A stretch of DNA of 64,000 nt from Promethearchaeota archaeon (GTDB lineage: Archaea; Asgardarchaeota; Heimdallarchaeia; Hodarchaeales; Hodarchaeaceae): positions 6,726 to 70,725 of the forward strand of contig JBHLPQ010000001.1 in the NCBI GenBank assembly GCA_048939265.1. The letters are read 5' to 3'. Under the pieces are notes generated by a model. It was given only the letters and a program-made list of their open reading frames with translations. It was not told the origin of the DNA and did not search any database. Below are positions 3,611-48,021 of this stretch, piece after piece (position 1 is the stretch's first letter; each line of letters begins with the position of its first letter). The translations under genes and the position numbers were made by a program.

Positions 3611-3753
3611 CGACTTTAAAATCCTAAAAAGAGTATTTAAGCCTCAGACCGCTCATCGTTCATCATTAATAACTTCTGTTCCCTAAGCTGTCATCATTGG
3701 CAGGACTGATATTAAATTAAATCTCAGATTAATATATATTTGTAGCTTACAAA

Positions 3754-4987: not shown

Positions 4988-7900
4988 ATGAAAATTATAA
5001 CAGAGGATCCTCTTTTTGGTGGAATAAAAGTGAAAAGAATACAAAACAATAAAATCTTCTTCCTCTTCATAGTATTATTATTTACCTATTCAGCTCAGGG
5101 ATTCATTCAGTTTTTTCAAACTGAGTCTATAGATTCCCACTCTTCTTCATTAGGTAATAGACAAGTCCCACCCCTTCAGGAAAATGGTCTTTCATCCTCC
5201 TCTTCTCCACGTACTGGGATCATTCCACCTTCAGGCTCTCGTCACTCTCCTCGGGCTGGTGTAAACGAAATAGTTGATGGAGGGTTTGTTTATTTTCCTG
5301 GTGACACGATTCACATCAGAAATCGGTTTAATATTCCTAACTATGATTTTGCAATATTATCTCAAAGGATTGATATTTATCTATTCAATAGTAGTGATAC
5401 TCCCGAAAATGTCTCAACCCACTTCGTCAAGTCAGATTATACTAATGGTTCGAGACCCGCCGAAGAACCCTCAATTTCGGATGATCCTCAACTTGGCTGG
5501 CTTGATACCACATTTCAAATTCCCACTTGGACAGAATTAAATGCTATGGGTATCGATGCTGATGATAATGTAACAATTTACCAATTCTATCCCTCATACA
5601 ATGTAACTTCTGAAATCTCTGGATGCCCACCTTTTAATCGAACTGATTCTTTTATCATTAGTGGCTATGCCATGTTTTCTGTTGATGCTCCTGGTTTGGT
5701 GAATCCTATTAGTGGGGACAATAGCTTTCGGCAGGGAGAAAATGCCACCGCTTCATTAACCGCAATTTCAGGGGTAGATCCTGTACCAGACGTAGCAGTT
5801 GACTGTTCCCTCTATTTCAGTAATGATATAGAAATTCTAAATGGAACCAATGGGTTCAACTATTATCTTCAAGATTCGTTGGGAAATCCATCAACTACAA
5901 CAGATTCGAATGGTAAGATCTACTTATTCGTGAATACAACCTATCCTACCACGTCTGAGAATGATTATTATTGTAATGTTACAGCCAATTTCGATGGAAC
6001 TGGTTTTTACACTAGTAATTACGTTCCTGGCAATCCAAGCACTAATACAGAGACAGCCTCGGTTGATTTCACGATTGATAATCAGGAAGACATCGTATCT
6101 ATTGATTTTATATCTGCCATTGGCGATACATCTGGTTGGCCAAAAGGGGAGAATGATTCCTGGCCCCTGAATCCCCCACTTGAAAACATCACGATTGTGA
6201 CATTTAGAGTTCAAGCTACTACCTCGTATAATGGGACCTCAACTCCCTATATCCTTGAGGGCATTCCTGTTAACGTAACTTTAGATTTCGGGGGTGGTTG
6301 GCCAGCAGGGGTAACCCTCAGTGCTGTCCCAGGATTTTCGTATAATGGTAGCTGGGCTTTCACTAATAGTGCTGGACTTGTCCAATTTAATATCACTGCG
6401 ATATATCCTACTTATTATGGTCAAAAAACCCCAACTATTATTGCGAGGGCAAATTTGCAGAATAATTCAGCTTTATCCTACCCCTATTCTTCTGTTTTAT
6501 TGCCCCATCGTTTTCTGACTTCTGCGACTGGTGTTAATGCTACCACTTCCAAAGTGATCAGTATTGACCATGATTTTTGGATTGGAGAGATTTCCTCTTC
6601 GCTAAACGACACTAGTATCCGACCAGGAGAAGGAGCGAGACTAGCGACGCAAATCTATGCTTATGGGGATTATTACGATGACCAATACCATCAGTCAATC
6701 TCTCCAATTGGCACCCTTCCTGTGAAAATTGAATTAATCCAACAGATTCCTGGCGTTAGTATTATTAATACGAATCCTGTTGCTCCGAATCCGGGCTACC
6801 ACTATACGGATATAAATGGCTGGATATATGTGGATATTAGCACAACCTTTGGGGTCACTCCTGAATACTATCTCAACCTGGGAATTAAAATAACGGTCGA
6901 TTTTGAAAATGATTCAAATCCCCGCTTGATTGGTCCGTATCATGCTGGTTATGATACTTTTGCAGAATTCGACAAAACATGGAATACAATCCAGAGAAAT
7001 CTTGACATTGATGCTAATTATATACTTTGTAACATCTACACAAGAGATCTTATTGAGAACGGAATATCCTACCCTTCTTCTAGCACAGAAGCAAAAATCC
7101 TCCGTCCAGGTGACGTCTTGGATGTTTATTTTGAGGTCGAAGAGGTCATAGAGGCTATTTCTTTAGGGAGTATTCCTGTAAACGTCTCACTGAGTGTCTC
7201 TGATCCAGAGGTCTCAATAGGATTCATTTATTCTGATGGTGAAGCAAGACCGAACTACCATAAAACAAGAAGTGATGGATATATAGCGATTCGTGTCACC
7301 ACTACCAGTAGTCTAAAACCTCAAGTAATTCAACTCAAAGCAATAGCCGATTTTGCCAATGACTCTTTGCCCTGGCATGTAGGCCCGAAAAATTACACTC
7401 AATTCATTGGGAATAGCTCATATTCTGAGATCATTTTTGACATTACTATTAATCCTCAATATTTTACGGGCAGTATTTATAGGCCTAATCCATCTATAAA
7501 TCCGAATGCCTCGTTAGTCGTTCAAGGCGAAACCTTTGAAATCAGATTTGATTTAAGGCTCACTTTTCACAATACTGGAGAAATTCTTCCCCTGGCCAAT
7601 GCTCTCATTGACGGAATCTCCATTACTCTCCTAGTAAACGGTACAACGAACTACGGCCTTTATAAGATGCGAGTGCTAAATGAGACTCTTTTAGAAGCCT
7701 CCAGTCAAAACACTGTTGATAGCACAGTAATTTTTTATGTCCAAACAAATGTTTCAGGGTCCACTGTAGAAGATACATACAATATCTCTGCTAGCGCTAA
7801 TTTTGGAGCTGCTAAGGGATGGATTTATAATATTACTCATCCGTCGGTACCTACAGGGGAATTGTCAGGAGACTGGGTCAATGGTTCCTCCGCAGCTGAT

Positions 7901-37192: not shown

Positions 37193-38908
37193 TCAGATCA
37201 ATTGATCTCCCTTCCATTCTCCAAAGACCTCTCTTAAAACATCACATATCTCACCAACAGAGGCATAAGCTTTCACAGCTTTCAGAATAGGAGGCATCAA
37301 ATTGCCAGCGCCTTCAGCAGCCTCACGTACCTCAACCAACGCGTCATTTACCGCCTTATTGTCTCGTTCCTTTTTGGTTTGGTGCAGACGCGCTATCTGT
37401 CGTTCTGCTATTTCTTCTCCAATTTGAAGGAGAGGAACCTTGATTTCTTCTTCCGAGCCATATTCATTAACTCCTACTATTACCCGTTGGTTTTCCTCTA
37501 TTTCTTTTTGATATAGATATGCTGCATTCGCTATTTCTTGTTGAAAAAATCCCTTTTCTATCGCAGGTATGACCCCACCCAACTGTTCAATTTTGGAAAA
37601 ATATTCTTCAGTTTGTTCTTCCATTTCATTTGTCAATGCTTCTACAAAATAGCTTCCTGCTAAAGGATCAATCGTATTTGTTACACCACTTTCGTGAGCA
37701 AGAATCTGTTGAGTTCGTAGTGCAATTTCAACTGCTTCCTCACTAGGTAAAGCTAATGCTTCATCTAGCGAATTTGTGTGGAGAGATTGAGTTCCACCCA
37801 ATACTGCTGCGAGTGCTTGGATAGTAGTACGTACAACATTATTATAAGGCTGTTGAGCAGTTAAGGAGCATCCTGCAGTCTGAGTATGAAAGCGTAACCA
37901 CATTGAACGGGATTTTTTTGGCTGATATTTCTTAATGTGACGAGCCCAGATACGACGGGCAGCACGATACTTAGCTATTTCTTCAAACAGGTCATTATGT
38001 GAATTAAAAAAGAAAGATAACCGAGGAGCAAAGTCATCGATATCCATACCAGCTTCTACGGCCCATTTCACATATTCTAGTCCATCAACTAAAGTAAAAG
38101 CAAGTTCTTGAACCGCAGTTGACCCTGCTTCGCGAATATGATATCCAGAAATAGAAATAGTATTCCAACGAGGAACGTGTTCTGAACAATACTTAATAAT
38201 ATCCACTATAATTCGCATCGATGGTTTTGGAGGAAATATATACGATTTTTGAGCAATAAATTCTTTAAGAATGTCATTTTGAATGGTTCCACCAATTTGA
38301 TCGGGCCTAACCCCTTGTTTTTCTGCTACTGCAATGTACATAGCGAGTAATATCGCTGCAGGAGCATTAATTGTCATTGATGTGGTCACCTGATTGAGGG
38401 GAATTCCATCAAACAAGATCTCCATGTCTTTTAATGTATCAATAGCCACACCTAACTTGCCAACCTCTCCAAGGGACATGGGATGGTCAGATTCACGACC
38501 ATAAATCGTAGGGAGATGAAAAGCCACACTCAATCCTGTCATTCCGTGCTCTAGAAGAAACTTAAATCTTTGATTTGTCTCTTCAGCGCCTCCAAATCCC
38601 GCAAATTGACGCATGGTCCATAAACGACCCCGATACATAGTCGGTTGAACGCCTCGTGTGAATGGAAACATACTTGGATATCCTAAGTCATCTTGGTAAC
38701 CCCAATTAGAAGGCAGATCTGTAGGATCATATATTCGATTAATAGGTTGACTAGAGGTTGTCATAAACTTCTGTAACCGCTCTGAATGTTTTTTTGTAGC
38801 GTTCTTGTAGATCGATTCCCATTCTTTGCGTTTTCGTTTGATATCATCTAAAGAATTGGCTTTTTCTTCCATTGGAGTTCTTCCACTCTTTGTTGTATTC
38901 GAAGTCAA
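37193..38908 (-). CDS. mcmA: Methylmalonyl-CoA mutase, large (substrate-binding TIM-barrel) subunit
   Basis: 571 aa. Blocks such as [33 protein letters not shown] and the [12 protein letters not shown]-like region match the MCM N-terminal domain. Split-subunit archaeal arrangement. Confidence 0.9.
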
Positions 38909-39450
38909 TACTCAACACCTTTTCGGGCTAATATCTGCTTTTGATATGGATGTTTATGTTCACAAATCTCTGTATAATAATCAGCAAGATCAATTAATAC
39001 ATTAGGCGCGTCTCTGCCTGTTAAAACCAACTCAAGATTTTTAGGTTTTTGCTTGATGATATCAATTACCTGTTTTTCAGATATTAATTTAAAGTCCAAA
39101 GCAACGTTAATCTCATCTAAAATCAAAATATCCCATTTCTCTTCTGTAATGGCTAATTTAGCACGATCTAAAGCAGCTTTAGCTTCATCTAAATCAATTT
39201 TCTTCGGATTATCCTTATTGACAAACTCAGGTGTCCCATACTGAAGAATGGTTATTTCAGGAATAGTCTGTATAACTCTTAATTCCCCATAATCCCACCC
39301 TTTTTTCATAAATTGGATAATCAATGACCGAAATCCATGTCCTGCAGCTCGAAGTGCCAATCCTAAAGCAGATGTCGTCTTCCCTTTCCCATTACCAGAA
39401 ATAACGTGAATTAATCCGAGCTGAGATGTTTCAATGCTTTCCTCATTCAT
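38905..39450 (-). CDS. cobO: Cob(I)alamin adenosyltransferase (CobA/CobO/BtuR family)
   Basis: [33 protein letters not shown]-loop signature of the CobA family. Its stop overlaps the mcmA start by 4 nt, so it is co-operonic with the mutase. Confidence 0.85.
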
Positions 39451-39591: not shown

Positions 39592-39605
39592 TAAATAAAT
39601 AACCT
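39592..39605 (+). promoter_or_regulatory. Archaeal TATA box (TAAATAAATAACC) about 30 nt upstream of tRNA-His
   Basis: An A/T box-A-like motif centred about 30 nt upstream of the predicted tRNA 5' end. Confidence 0.4.
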
Positions 39606-39629: not shown

Positions 39630-39730
39630 GGCCGACGTAGGATAGATACGAGCAGCTGACTGCTTGTAGTACAATGGTAGTCTCGGAGGTTGTGGCCCTT
39701 CATGTCCGGGTTCGATTCCCGGTGTCGGCC
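39630..39730 (+). tRNA. tRNA-His(GUG) with an encoded G-1 and a ~27-nt insertion (non-canonical intron) in the D-arm region. No encoded CCA.
   Basis: Manual fold: G-1 then acceptor GCCGACG/UGUCGGC, discriminator C73 (the G-1:C73 pair is diagnostic of His), anticodon stem GGAGG/CCUUC with loop UUGUGGC (anticodon GUG), T-arm CCGGG-UUCGAUU-CCCGG. The 5' half between the acceptor and anticodon stems is about 27 nt too long and contains a GCAGC/GCUGC hairpin, consistent with a BHB intron. Confidence 0.6.
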
Positions 39731-39901
39731 CTCACTTTTAACACAAGATTTTATATATAAATCACTGCTACAATCACCCTCAGCTTTATTTTGTCAGTTA
39801 TGCATCTCTCTTCGGATTTCTTGGTAAAAATAAAAATGAAGATACCTTTTTTCTATTAAAGGATCCTTACTTAGAGTTGCCATTAAAGAGCCTGAAGATT
39901 A

Positions 39902-41044
39902 CTATTCCATATTCGCATGAACTATTGGAGGATCACCAGGAGTTATTGTGATTAAATTTCTTGAAACTAACTCCTCTTGTAACATTTGTTTGAGCCTCGT
40001 GGGATGTGCACCAACAGACATGGCAAGTGTAGGAAGATCTAGAGAACCTCCAAGATTTAGTAAAATCAAGATTGAAGCATATAAGGGATGGGTGGAAAGT
40101 AACCTCTGAGTGTATTCCAAGATTATATTACGTTGAGTACGTTCATCATATATTTTGGTCAGTTTTTCTTGAAGGGTTTTCTGCTCCTCTTCGGCCATTG
40201 TAAGAGCTTCTTCCAGACGAGATACCGTCATTTTATACTGTTTAGAGTCTACTTCATGTCGTTCAATTTCATTCTTTAAGCGGGTCTGCATTTCTTCTAT
40301 CTCTAAATCATAATCCTGACGTACCTGCTTTAATCGTTGTTGTACAGCCTCTTCTAACATCCGAGCATAATAATCTTCTTGTATTTGATAGGTTTCAGCA
40401 ACTGAGGCTAACGCCTCTTCAATATCTTTTTCGTGGATCTTTTCATTCTCTTTTAATTTTTCAATTAACGCCTCTTTCGCAGCTAATTCTGATCTAATCT
40501 CCACAACGCTTTTTTGGGTTAGCTGTTCCTGCTCTTGAAGGCTTTGAACTTGATTCTGCAACCGTTTGATTTCTATCTCTTGTTGTGCGACTTTATCCTT
40601 ATTTTCCTCATAAATCTGACGGTTTTCCTCCCGCTCGTGTTCAAACTGAGACAGCTGTGTATTCTTGTCTTTGATCTGGCCTTTTAAGGTCTTAATCTCT
40701 GCCTCGAATACTTGAATTTGTTCTTCTGTAACAGAAGAAGTGACTTCTTGAAGGAATGTCGCATCACTTTGAATGATTTGGCGAATCCGACCCAAAGATT
40801 TGAGTGTAATACGGGTCAATTCTCCATCTACAACACGTGCGGTCTCCTTCCTGATTATTTTAATAAATTCTTCTAAATCTTTGTAAGTAAAATGTGGAAG
40901 GCCTTGGGTGACGAAAGAGCTTTTCGCCCCAGAAATACCTACACCAATCTCCTGCTGAGCAACCTCTCGATCTTTAGCCATTTCATTAATAAACTCTAAA
41001 CCATACTCCTTCAGCGTTTTTTGTGCCATATATCTTTCCTTCAT
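39902..41044 (-). CDS. Hypothetical coiled-coil protein (380 aa) with a C-terminal winged-helix-like segment
   Basis: Central ~250 aa are heptad-rich with Glu/Gln/Lys/Leu. No enzymatic motif. Confidence 0.4.
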   Translation of the reverse strand: MKERYMAQKTLKEYGLEFINEMAKDREVAQQEIGVGISGAKSSFVTQGLPHFTYKDLEEFIKIIRKETARVVDGELTRITLKSLGRIRQIIQSDATFLQEVTSSVTEEQIQVFEAEIKTLKGQIKDKNTQLSQFEHEREENRQIYEENKDKVAQQEIEIKRLQNQVQSLQEQEQLTQKSVVEIRSELAAKEALIEKLKENEKIHEKDIEEALASVAETYQIQEDYYARMLEEAVQQRLKQVRQDYDLEIEEMQTRLKNEIERHEVDSKQYKMTVSRLEEALTMAEEEQKTLQEKLTKIYDERTQRNIILEYTQRLLSTHPLYASILILLNLGGSLDLPTLAMSVGAHPTRLKQMLQEELVSRNLITITPGDPPIVHANME

Positions 41045-41115: not shown

Positions 41116-41883
41116 ATGACGAATGAAAAAGAGGCCTCTCTCATGTCAGCAGAGCAAAACAATGTACTGTTTCAGAAATTCAATCTTTCCTTAAATCTAA
41201 AATTACCTCTAGCATTACTCATTGAAGCTCTTACACACCCGTCCTACAAATCAGTAGATCCTAATATTCGTGATAATCAACGACTTGAAACGCTTGGAGA
41301 TTCCGTTATTGATCTTCTCGTTCTTAATTGGTTCTATCACAAGGATGTAATGACTGAAGGAATGTTAACGAAGAAACGGGCCGAAATTGTCCAAAACACC
41401 ACATTAGCGAAAATAGGGAAAGACTTACAATTAGACTCAATCCTACGCTGTGCACCAGCTTATATAATTCAAGAAAAAGATATTGCTGATACTATTGAAG
41501 CCATCTTCGGAGCAGTATTCGTAGCTAATGGATTGTCTTTATGTCAGTCGCTGTTATTACAACTGTTTGAGGATCTTTTAGATAATGCTTTGAACTCCGA
41601 TGAGAATGAAAGCTTTATTCTAGGCCAAAATGAAATTAATCCAAAAAATCAGCTCCAGGAATTTTTTCAGCAGCGGTATTTACCTGAACCTATATATCGA
41701 TTACTTAAAAAGGAGGGGAGTGATCATGAACCAAGATATTGGTATTTATGTCAAGGAACATACCAAGAGGAGATTGTGAAAGGGGAAGGATTTGGAAAAA
41801 ATAAAAAAGAAGCGCAGAAAGACGCTGCCCAAAACTTGCTCAAAAAACTCATTCACTTGGAAAATCAGGTTAATTGTGATTAA
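41116..41883 (+). CDS. rnc: Ribonuclease III (bacterial-type, catalytic domain plus C-terminal dsRBD)
   Basis: RNase III signature HPSY....NQRLETLGDSVIDLLV, a second acidic cluster DTIEAIFGAVF, and a C-terminal dsRBD (NPKNQLQEFFQQRYLPEPIYRL...GEGFGKNKKEAQKDAAQNLLKKL). Confidence 0.85.
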   Translation: MTNEKEASLMSAEQNNVLFQKFNLSLNLKLPLALLIEALTHPSYKSVDPNIRDNQRLETLGDSVIDLLVLNWFYHKDVMTEGMLTKKRAEIVQNTTLAKIGKDLQLDSILRCAPAYIIQEKDIADTIEAIFGAVFVANGLSLCQSLLLQLFEDLLDNALNSDENESFILGQNEINPKNQLQEFFQQRYLPEPIYRLLKKEGSDHEPRYWYLCQGTYQEEIVKGEGFGKNKKEAQKDAAQNLLKKLIHLENQVNCD

Positions 41884-41902: not shown

Positions 41903-42298
41903 CTATTTCAAGGGGACAAATTGTGATCCTCTTGTGGCTCCAATACCAGGAGCGGAGTGCTTAACCTGTTTACAGGTGGGCGCAAACTCCCCTAAATAAT
42001 GTCCAAGCATTTCTGGGAGAAGATTGACACGAAGAAACTCCTTACCGTTGTAAACCTGAACAACAGCACCAATAAGTTCGGGAAGAATGATGAAATCGCG
42101 GCAGTGCGTTCGAATAGGCCGTTTTGATTCTTTGCTAGCCAGAATGCGTTCCATTAGTTTAATGTGCTGAGAACTCATTCCACGGGTCAGAGATCGACGC
42201 TGGCGAGCAGGAAGGAGGGAAATAAATTCATCCATGGATTTTTGACGGAGTTCATCGAGTGTAAATCCACGATAACGAAAACCACGACGTGATGACAA
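41903..42298 (-). CDS. rps19: 30S ribosomal protein S19 (uS19 / S15e-type archaeal form)
   Basis: FRYRGFTLDELRQKSMDEFISLLPARQRRSL....THCRDFIILPELIGAVVQVYNGKEF...PEMLGHYLGEFAPT.K.VKHSAPGIGATR matches archaeal/eukaryotic uS19. Confidence 0.85.
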   Translation of the reverse strand: MSSRRGFRYRGFTLDELRQKSMDEFISLLPARQRRSLTRGMSSQHIKLMERILASKESKRPIRTHCRDFIILPELIGAVVQVYNGKEFLRVNLLPEMLGHYLGEFAPTCKQVKHSAPGIGATRGSQFVPLK

Positions 42299-42659: not shown

Positions 42660-43136
42660 ATGGTTGAATTTGAAGTGCCGAATTACAAGATCTCCGTCTT
42701 TGGGTTAGATGCAGACCGCACTGCGATTGCAACAGGACGGAATATGCGAATTTCGCCAAAGCATGCTCGTGAAATTTGTCATGAATTAAAAGGGAAATAC
42801 TTAGAAACCGCTCAAGAATATCTTGAACAAGTAATCGCAGGAGAAAAAAGTGTTCCTTTCAAACGATATCGGAAAAAAATACCTCACCGACGCGATTTAC
42901 AGAAATGGCCAGCAGGGCGTTACCCCCAAAAGGCAGCAAGGGAAATTCTCCGAGTCTTGGAAAATGTGGAACAGAATTCCTCATTCAAAGGATTAGAGGT
43001 TAGCCGGTTACGAATAACCCATATTGCGGCTCAAAGAGGACGAAAAATCCGAGGAATTATGCCACGAGCCCATGGACGGTCATCACCAAGCAATCAAACA
43101 TTAACTCATGTCGAGGTAGTGGTTACGGAGGAGTGA
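42660..43136 (+). CDS. rpl22: 50S ribosomal protein L22 (uL22)
   Basis: Archaeal uL22 pattern (ISPKHAREICHELKGKYLETAQEYLEQV....GLEVSRLRITHIAAQRG), in position before uS3. Confidence 0.85.
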   Translation: MVEFEVPNYKISVFGLDADRTAIATGRNMRISPKHAREICHELKGKYLETAQEYLEQVIAGEKSVPFKRYRKKIPHRRDLQKWPAGRYPQKAAREILRVLENVEQNSSFKGLEVSRLRITHIAAQRGRKIRGIMPRAHGRSSPSNQTLTHVEVVVTEE

Positions 43137-43139
43137 GGG
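43127..43139 (+). promoter_or_regulatory. Shine-Dalgarno-like GGAGGAGTGAGGG immediately upstream of the rps3 start
   Basis: A purine-rich GGAGG stretch ending about 2-7 nt before the ATG of the internal operon gene. Confidence 0.3.
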
Positions 43140-43140
43140 A

Positions 43141-43932
43141 ATGGCTGCAAGAAAAGAGTTATTAAATAGGAATTTGCAATACGTTCAAGTAAGTGAATAC
43201 CTAAATGATGAATTACAGTTAGCAGGGCAAGGGAAGGTTGAGATTCATAAAACACCAATGGGCCATCGAGTGGTAATCCACGCTGTACGATTAGGAATGG
43301 TGATTGGGAGACGTGGACGAAATATTAGAAAAATCACTGAAATTCTAGAGCATAAATTCGGATTAGAAACTCCTCAACTAGAAATCAAAGATCTTGAAAA
43401 TCCTAGACTTAATTCCCGAGTAATGGCTGGTAGATTAATTTCACAAATTCAAAAGGGGTTCCACTTTCGTAGAGCAGGGTATGCTTTAGTTCGACGAATC
43501 ATGTCCGCAGACGCACGAGGTTGCGAAATTACAATAAAAGGCAAATTAACCTCCCAACGAGCACGTGCGGAAGTTTTCAGAGAAGGGTTCGTGGCAAAAT
43601 GTGGAGAGCCTTCAAAAAGATACGTCGAAGATACAGTAATGGAAGTAACACTCAAACAGGGAGTTATCGGGGTACATGTAAAGATTATGCAACCCGATGC
43701 AGTACTCCCTGATGATGCCGTACTCATACCAAATGTTTTTGGTGAACCAAAAGATGAAGTGATCATCGAGGAAGAAGAAGAATTTGTCGAAGAAGAACTA
43801 AAACCAGAAACTGAGGAAGAGCCCATACCTGAAACGAAAGCAGAAGAAGATATAATTGAAGCGGATCCTGAAGATGCAATTGAAAAAAGTGAAGAATTGC
43901 TGAAAGAGGAAGATTTTGAAGAAGAAAGGTGA
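43141..43932 (+). CDS. rps3: 30S ribosomal protein S3 (uS3) with an acidic C-terminal extension
   Basis: KH domain (RLGMVIGRRGRNIRKITEILEHKFG), the uS3 C-terminal domain, then a Glu-rich tail. Confidence 0.9.
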   Translation: MAARKELLNRNLQYVQVSEYLNDELQLAGQGKVEIHKTPMGHRVVIHAVRLGMVIGRRGRNIRKITEILEHKFGLETPQLEIKDLENPRLNSRVMAGRLISQIQKGFHFRRAGYALVRRIMSADARGCEITIKGKLTSQRARAEVFREGFVAKCGEPSKRYVEDTVMEVTLKQGVIGVHVKIMQPDAVLPDDAVLIPNVFGEPKDEVIIEEEEEFVEEELKPETEEEPIPETKAEEDIIEADPEDAIEKSEELLKEEDFEEER

Positions 43933-46996: not shown

Positions 46997-47155
46997 ATGC
47001 ATAAGATGTCAGAGCCAAAGAAAAAGTTTGGGAAGGGAACACGTACCTGTCGGAGATGTGGGACACATAGAGCAGTTATACGAAAATATGGATTGTACAT
47101 CTGCAGACGATGTATCCGAGAAATTGCAGACGACTTAGGTTTTAGAAAATATTGA
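46997..47155 (+). CDS. rps14: 30S ribosomal protein S14 type Z (uS14, zinc-binding). Start moved to the internal ATG after the rpl5 stop.
   Basis: [45 protein letters not shown] is a canonical Zn-ribbon uS14. The in-table start at 46955 would overlap rpl5 by 40 nt. Confidence 0.8.
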
Positions 47156-48021
47156 CAGCTAGACGAACTCCATTCCAACAAATTCAACAAGTAATCCGAG
47201 ACCAAGAAATTCTACCAGAAAAAAAGCTTGCACTATTACCAAAACGCTGGAAGCGAGTAGGGGAAGTAGGGATATTAAATCTGAACCCAGAACTCTTACC
47301 CTGGAAGAGAGAAATAGGGGAAAAATATCTAGAATTCTTACCAGAACTAAAGACAATTGCACATAAAGTTGGAATAACAACTGCCACGATAAGGCAACCT
47401 GATAATGAGGTTCTAGCAGGAGACACCAATACAGTCACGCTACACAAGGAGTTAGGCTGTAAATTCTGGATAGACGCGCTGAAACTGACATTTTCCAATG
47501 GAAATCATGCAGAACGACAAAGGATGATAAGAATCTGCCAGAAACGGGAACAAATTATTGATATGTTTGCCTGTGTTGGAAACTTGTCATTACCAATAGC
47601 TGTTCACAATCCAGCTGTTAAAATAAAAGGAATTGAAATCAATCCAGAGGCATTTGAGTTCTTGAAAAAGAATATTCAGGTGAATCAGGTTAAGGAACAA
47701 TACCAAGCAGTATTTGGGGATAACCGGAAAGTCACACCAAAGGATTGGGCAGATCGAGTAATTATGGGATATTTCACCAGTGATAATGCTCAACTTGCTG
47801 CTGCCCTTACGAGTTTAAACCAAGAACATGGAGGAATCATTCATGTTCATGGATTATCTAGCTCACGTAATCCAACTGATTGGCATCCACAAATACAAGC
47901 AGTAATTGAAGAATCATTTCCTCATCTTATAATTAAAACTAATTATAAAAAAATTATCAAGACAGTCGCACCAGGCATTAACCACTATGTTAATGATATA
48001 GAAATACTATCCAATAAATAA
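47152..48021 (+). CDS. tRNA methyltransferase of the Trm5/Taw2 (Met-10+ like) class, TTG start
   Basis: SAM-dependent MTase motif I in a Met-10+ context ([16 protein letters not shown]...[21 protein letters not shown]), length 289 aa. The start overlaps the rps14 stop. Confidence 0.7.

Follow-up and report, generated by a model that had tools for sequence, protein, structure and literature searches.

The extra length of a histidine tRNA gene

How does a tRNA gene whose outer arms all look normal come to have a D region far too long for a tRNA, and would the surplus be removed from the transcript or kept in it? The question is raised by a tRNA-His(GUG) gene at positions 39630-39730 (+) of the stretch of DNA analyzed here (64 kb in full; called the window), where the oversized D region can be read directly in the sequence. 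We consider it very probable that this is a functional tRNA-His(GUG) gene whose D-loop is interrupted, at 15/16, by an archaeal intron of 29 nt that is spliced by protein enzymes. The parts of the gene and the signals around it, named according to that reading, are as follows.

39592-39602 (+), TATA-like A/T-rich box TAAATAAATAA, 28 to 38 nt upstream of G-1
39630-39645 (+), exon 1, G-1 through G15
39630 (+), encoded G-1, read directly in the sequence
39631-37 and 39723-29 (+), acceptor stem GCCGACG/UGUCGGC, 7/7 paired including one G-U
39638-39 (+), U8 and A9, in exon 1
39640-43 (+), D-stem 5' strand GGAU, also the 5' strand of helix H in the splice motif
39644-45 (+), A14 and G15, bases 1 and 2 of the 5' bulge
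39675-39730 (+), exon 2, U16 through C73
39675-79 (+), U16 G18 G19 U20 A21, the start of exon 2
39680-83 (+), D-stem 3' strand GUCU, followed by C26, in exon 2
39685-39701 (+), anticodon arm GGAGG-UUGUGGC-CCUUC, with anticodon GUG at 39692-94 and G37
39702-05 (+), variable loop AUGU, 4 nt, in exon 2
39706-22 (+), T arm CCGGG-UUCGAUU-CCCGG, in exon 2
39730 (+), discriminator C73, opposite the encoded G-1
39736-39739 (+), TTTT run, 6 nt after C73

The prokaryotic tRNA-His identity set is present: the anticodon GUG lies in a loop of 7 nt, and the encoded G-1 faces C73. The G-1:C73 pair is GC in 11/11 aligned tRNA-His sequences, and CCA is not encoded at the 3' end. An earlier reading made from the sequence alone had named the gene as tRNA-His(GUG) with the G-1:C73 pair and canonical acceptor, anticodon, and T arms, all of which we read directly in the sequence. 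It had put the excess between the acceptor and anticodon stems at about 27 nt; the stretch measures 47 nt, compared with the 18 nt expected with a 7-nt D-loop, so that the excess is exactly 29 nt. Within it, GGAU is followed by a 36-nt stretch and then by GUCU. The TATA-like box that the same reading placed about 30 nt upstream is present, and A/T-rich boxes lie at a similar distance upstream of most orthologues; its role as a candidate archaeal promoter element is plausible. The TTTT run may be an archaeal transcription stop, and T runs also lie downstream of most orthologues.

Relatives carry exactly 29 nt or none

We searched for the pattern UAGGAUA, a gap, GGUAGUCU, six bases, and UUGUGG, allowing inserts of 0 to 30 nt in genomes and of 13 to 43 nt in metagenomes. 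Hodarchaeales matches had an insert of either 0 or exactly 29 nt and nothing else; beyond these, the search returned a single bacterial tRNA-His and a single chance match to something other than a tRNA. The insert was carried by 12 distinct sequences including the window, the 11 others having exactly 29 nt at the same site. Six further Hodarchaeales sequences were intronless, with the D-loop AAYGGUA and without exactly those 29 nt. The comparison with these six, from which the window gene differs by a precise 29-nt insert, bears out the proposal of the sequence-only reading that the gene holds a noncanonical D-arm intron.

The insert was also found without recourse to the tRNA sequence, in two loci (L002 and L003) retrieved through a neighboring protein. 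The genes that flank the tRNA gene in the window are listed below; archaeal-type ribosomal protein genes flank the locus as well.

37193-38908 (-), MCM, methylmalonyl-CoA mutase
38905-39450 (-), CobA, ATP:corrinoid adenosyltransferase
39902-41044 (-), hyp380, a protein of 380 aa with no Pfam match
41116-41883 (+), bacterial-type RNase III with a dsRNA-binding domain

Loci retrieved with hyp380 had a tRNA-His gene with an oversized D-loop in the same place, both in the complete chromosome CP070695.1 (hyp380 protein identity, 86%) and in a 63%-identical relative. Wherever the flanking sequence sufficed, CobA-MCM and/or hyp380 adjoined intron-bearing and intronless genes alike, and the same CobA-MCM locus was demonstrated for 5/6 intronless sequences. 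Homologues of hyp380 and of the F420 ligase of the window came almost all from metagenome-assembled genomes labeled Hodarchaeales, Hodarchaeota, Heimdallarchaeota, or Promethearchaeota, and the host is accordingly placed in the Asgard order Hodarchaeales. A single origin followed by several precise losses or transfers appears more likely than repeated gain, because the intron-plus and intron-minus forms interleave on a rough neighbor-joining tree of CobA and MCM and because the introns of the window clade and of the intron-bearing clade farthest from it share 66% identity.

Boundaries of the insert and the D arm left by its removal

The insert comprises the following elements.

39646-39674 (+), intron, 29 nt, Sprinzl site 15/16, the exact 29 nt missing from intronless orthologues
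39646 (+), A, intron base 1 and third base of the 5' bulge
39647-39668 (+), h' hairpin, 22 nt, with 9 bp (39647-55/39660-68) and the loop CUGA (39656-59)
39669-72 (+), GUAC, 3' strand of H, within the intron
39673-74 (+), A A, bases 1 and 2 of the 3' bulge

The hairpin stem is UACGAGCAG/CUGCUUGUA. A GCAGC/GCUGC hairpin had been noted before; the hairpin is there, with AGCAG/CUGCU as its core and a stem of 9 bp. Folding the single sequence gave the cloverleaf arms plus this 9-bp hairpin inside the D region. When 39646-39674 was excised, ARAGORN called a 72-nt tRNA-His(gtg) at default settings, and the remaining D arm was GGAU-AGUGGUA-GUCU with a 7-nt D-loop; the junction in the spliced tRNA would read GGAUAG followed by UGGUAGUCU. 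A normal D arm after removal was the point on which the sequence-only reading had staked its intron. The D stem and the exon boundaries, which that reading had left uncertain, are settled by the comparative data, in which the intronless D arm is GGAU-AAYGGUA-GUCU.

In the chosen register, all sequences have a purine at position 15 and a pyrimidine at position 16. A shift by 1 to 2 bases would put U at position 15 in the L018 clade, and a register giving a pyrimidine there was disfavored. When exon 1 was taken to end at column 14, 15, or 17 of the alignment, none of the resulting splice registers had bulge-helix-bulge (BHB) geometry. Boundaries shifted by 1 to 2 nt would yield the same or a nearly identical product and, judging from the sequence, are conceivable.

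A relaxed splice motif at the D stem

The archaeal splicing endonuclease acts on a helix H of 4 bp whose two strands each carry a 3-nt bulge, and it cleaves between the second and third bases of either bulge. For the canonical intron at 37/38, the 5' strand of H consists of positions 32-35 (PMC4090602). The corresponding layout in tRNA-His is GGAU, AG^A, the 9-bp hairpin of 22 nt, GUAC, and AA^U, that is, an intron of 1+22+4+2, and this layout places the end of exon 1 at 39645 and the start of exon 2 at 39675.

The BHB search around the D region, which had been suggested along with the sequence-only reading, gave a divided result. No strict motif at any exon/intron boundary yielded a sensible tRNA, and the candidate, HBh' at 39646-39674, surfaced only under a relaxed rule. 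H of the window gene has 3/4 pairs and the outer helix h has 0, so that the motif belongs to the relaxed HBh'/BHL form and not to the strict hBHBh' form. Across all 11 aligned sequences H has 2 to 3 of its 4 pairs and always contains an internal G.A or A.A mismatch. Nevertheless, pairing of H was 70.5% in the BHB register, compared with 18 to 61% in slid registers and 45.5 ± 7.5% at random.

On the basis of this geometry we propose the following course of splicing. The gene would be transcribed from the promoter about 30 nt upstream. In the precursor, GGAU would pair 3/4 with the intron's GUAC (39669-72) to form the central helix H, leaving the bulge A-G-A (39644-46) between H and the 9-bp h' hairpin (HBh', the relaxed BHB form) and the 3' splice site A-A^U (39673-75) after H with no closing outer helix. 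The archaeal splicing endonuclease would cut after the second base of each 3-nt element, and an RtcB-type ligase would join the exons. GGAU could then switch partner to GUCU, giving the D stem and the 7-nt D-loop AGUGGUA, and RNase P would leave the encoded G-1 in place. Neither EndA nor RtcB was found in the window among the 37 of its 43 ORFs of at least 150 aa that were scanned against Pfam. An (αβ)2 EndA with an L1 loop and broad specificity is present in four Asgard genomes, including that of a Heimdallarchaeote (PMC5829648).

In one clade (L018, L019, L022, and L025) the 3' end of the intron, GACUA, is perfectly complementary to UAGUC in exon 2 (alignment columns 40-44 with 49-53). Such a conformer, if the predicted pairing forms, would have the 3' splice site within a hairpin loop of 4 nt and would compete with H.

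Introns of the same layout in tRNA-Gly(CCC)

The second tRNA gene of the window and its counterparts in two relatives are also interrupted.

2778-2677 (-), window tRNA-Gly(CCC), with a T-loop intron of 29 nt at 2719-2691, site 59/60
L031 2432-2585 (+), tRNA-Gly(CCC) with three introns: 31 nt at 15/16, 20 nt at 37/38, and 29 nt at 59/60
L032 2389-2508 (+), tRNA-Gly(CCC) with two introns: 19 nt at 37/38 and 29 nt at 59/60

The motif of the window tRNA-Gly is a perfect hBHBh', in which h is the T stem, H is UUCA/UGAA, and h' is GUAAU/AUUAC; the bulges are AA^U and AC^U, and the layout, 1+22+4+2, is identical to that of tRNA-His. Excising the intron gives the T-loop UUCAAAU and a tRNA-Gly call by ARAGORN, whereas the unspliced gene is missed by both ARAGORN and Rfam. 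The L031 and L032 genes likewise became detectable by ARAGORN only after in silico splicing.

The 15/16 intron of L031 tRNA-Gly has an HBh' motif, with the D-stem 5' strand serving in H (GUCU/AGAU, 4/4), the bulges AG^A and AG^U, and no outer helix. It shares with the tRNA-His intron the site, an H built on the D-stem 5' strand, bulges of the form A-R^N and A-N^Y, and the lack of an outer helix. The two tRNAs differ in that H is perfect (4/4) in the tRNA-Gly introns of the window and L031 and has 2 to 3 of 4 pairs in tRNA-His, and sequence similarity between the tRNA-Gly and tRNA-His introns is undetectable. The 59/60 intron is exactly 29 nt in three relatives (L029, L031, and L032). The idea that every intron of this lineage is 29 nt long was rejected, the tRNA-Gly introns of relatives being 19, 20, 29, and 31 nt long. 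The expectation that this lineage is rich in noncanonical introns is supported, in that both tRNA genes of the window are interrupted and the tRNA-Gly genes of relatives have one to three introns.

Removal, retention, or decay

We measured covariation on the alignment of 11 tRNA-His sequences, in which columns 9-15, 47-54, and 61-66 are fixed by the search pattern, so that conservation there is no evidence. Mean pairwise identity was 88% in the exons (pattern-fixed columns left out), compared with 54% in the 29 intron columns (minimum, 21%). Both sides had changed in 7/9 pairs of the intron's h' helix, which was 89.9% paired, and RNAalifold recovered the hairpin unaided.

These data bear first on whether the 29 nt might be kept. 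A mature tRNA-His with an extra hairpin arm in the variable alpha region of the D-loop (positions 15-18) is, in our judgment, improbable, and the data speak less firmly against it than against the other rivals. The length of the insert and the dimensions of its hairpin are invariant in 12 diverged sequences while the stem covaries, a constraint (29 nt throughout, with 9 bp and a 4-nt loop) tighter than that on the h' and loop of typical introns. Moreover, the central helix of the BHB is imperfect and its outer helix missing, and the cloverleaf with the D stem and the hairpin is predicted to be slightly more stable than the conformer with H in 10/11 sequences. Against retention stand the six interleaved Hodarchaeales sequences (five at the same locus) in which precisely these 29 nt are missing and the D-loop has its normal 7 nt, as well as the freedom of the hairpin to change in sequence, seen in the 54% identity. 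The bulge, the hairpin, and the 4-nt spacing, furthermore, match both the strict BHB intron of the window and the 15/16 HBh' of L031 nucleotide for nucleotide. No tRNA that keeps an extra arm in its D-loop is known to us, which also counts against such an arm, as does the known richness of Asgard archaea in introns of this type (PMC11291895). That the retained arm would have a structural role, for example in tRNA-His recognition or regulation, the mismatched H then being no splice signal, seems to us quite improbable.

Next we weighed an intron of the same length placed 5' of the D stem (between 7/8 and 10/11), with GUAC/GUCU as the D stem, which we regard as very unlikely indeed. A repeated UAG (39638-40 and 39667-69) makes the excision of 29 nt, 39638-39666, arithmetically possible, and Rfam aligns its model positions 8-63 to 39667-39722, taking GUAC as the 5' strand of the D stem. 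However, GUAC/GUCU contains a U.C mismatch, and this stem was rejected because the corresponding bases of relatives (GACU, GACG, GUAA, or AUCA) cannot pair with GUCU. GGAU, in contrast, is used by the intronless orthologues and by the independently found L002 and L003, and neither the strict search nor a manual check found BHB-like geometry at the boundaries in question.

That a palindromic insertion, random or mobile, has reduced the gene to a nonfunctional pseudogene or fragment is scarcely credible. ARAGORN finds no tRNA here and the Rfam match is barely at threshold, but compensatory changes preserve every stem in the 11 diverged sequences, the position of the gene within the locus is conserved, a genome scan able to match both forms found no second matching tRNA-His in any intron-bearing genome (including the 4.94-Mb CP070695.1), and the insert is neither repeated in the window nor present in viral contigs. 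The acceptor, anticodon, and T stems are 96 to 100% paired in the 11 sequences, with compensatory substitutions, and the G-1:C73 and acceptor pairs are retained in all orthologues. The tRNA-His gene thus evolves under the constraints of a tRNA, and covariation together with synteny rejects the pseudogene.

Two other origins or fates of the hairpin were considered. A repeated, mobile, or viral element was rejected: neither the insert nor its hairpin is repeated anywhere else in the 64-kb window, and a search of viral contigs with the 3' two-thirds of the tRNA-His gene gave no match. Processing of the hairpin by the RNase III encoded at 41116-41883 was judged unlikely, since a classical substrate of RNase III needs a longer helix than 9 bp.

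Likeness to known introns

The removable 29-nt intron that we favor would be an ordinary example of the known archaeal, enzyme-spliced type and no new kind of element. D-loop introns have been spliced experimentally in the pre-tRNA-Glu(UUC) of Methanopyrus kandleri, one of the relaxed D-loop HBh' introns shown to be spliced in that species (site 20b/21; PMC5829648), and in the pre-tRNA-Thr(UGU) of Aeropyrum pernix, whose EndA splices it (PMC3241643). These introns and that of Hodarchaeales tRNA-His are alike in being short D-loop introns with a 3-nt bulge between a 4-bp helix and the intron hairpin, whose removal is expected to need an EndA of broad specificity; with M. kandleri, the tRNA-His intron also shares one bulge left unclosed by an outer helix. 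The Hodarchaeales case differs in its Asgard host, in the tRNA concerned, in the site (15/16), in an H that is always mismatched, and in that splicing is here deduced from comparison and geometry.

Closer relatives offer a second parallel. In Atabeyarchaeia and Freyarchaeia 92 to 95% of tRNA genes contain introns, many of them noncanonical, and tRNA-His(GTG) of Atabeyarchaeia-2 is listed with a 39-nt intron from gene position 14, in the D arm (PMC11291895, including Supplementary Data 4). These archaea belong to the same phylum-level group as the lineage of the window, and their tRNA genes are mostly interrupted, often outside 37/38. The tRNA-His intron described here belongs to another class (Heimdallarchaeia), is 29 rather than 39 nt long, and lies at another exact site. 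The multi-intron tRNA genes of Thermoproteales, which Sugahara et al. reportedly described in 2008, resemble it in their frequent noncanonical introns, relaxed BHB motifs, and patchy presence among close relatives; their hosts are hyperthermophiles of the TACK group, whereas the Asgard lineage considered here is mesophilic.

The literature searched yielded no account of tRNA introns in Hodarchaeales, and our results add this order to the Asgard groups with intron-rich tRNA genes, alongside Atabeyarchaeia and Freyarchaeia. The constant mismatch in H and the strictly conserved 29-nt size are the points of note. Interleaved lineages that have or lack the intron at a single locus provide a natural series for studying intron loss or gain, and a substrate with a mismatched H and no outer helix would be useful for testing the specificity of the Asgard splicing endonuclease.

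Detection by standard tRNA finders

Standard finders miss both tRNA genes of the window. ARAGORN found no tRNA in the raw 64-kb sequence, although two genes are present, and the Rfam tRNA model matched only 39667-39722, with 29.1 bits, right at the gathering score. Intronless orthologues of tRNA-His scored 47 to 55 bits with this model, compared with 27 to 35 bits for interrupted ones. An exhaustive excision followed by ARAGORN at relaxed thresholds was dropped as nondiscriminating, 594/675 excisions having been called as tRNAs. Hodarchaeales are currently seen as the closest archaeal relatives of eukaryotes, and annotations of their genomes made with such tools can seem to have no tRNA-His, because ARAGORN and Rfam miss the interrupted genes or barely reach them. 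The same concern about annotation has been raised for Asgard genomes generally (Kaneta et al. 2018).

Other features of the locus and the window

Several minor observations concern the surroundings of the two tRNA genes. The RNase III gene adjoins hyp380 in both relatives' loci with gene calls that we examined (L002 and L003), and RNase III of the bacterial type is uncommon in Archaea. The ribosomal protein S19 gene (41903-42298, -) is inverted relative to L22-S3 (42660-43932, +), likewise in L002 and L003. Farther along, after the S4e and L5 genes, lies a gene for a tRNA methyltransferase of the Trm5/TYW2 family, which acts on G at position 37 (47152-48021, +). In one relative, L013, a HEARO RNA (5239-5475, +; 96.7 bits), the omega-RNA of IS200/IS605 elements, is inserted between the CobA and tRNA-His genes. 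Finally, a candidate C/D-box sRNA lies at 3642-3701 (-) of the window; its match to the Rfam sR1 model is below threshold (24.1 bits, E = 0.052), and AUGAUGA and CUGA boxes are present.
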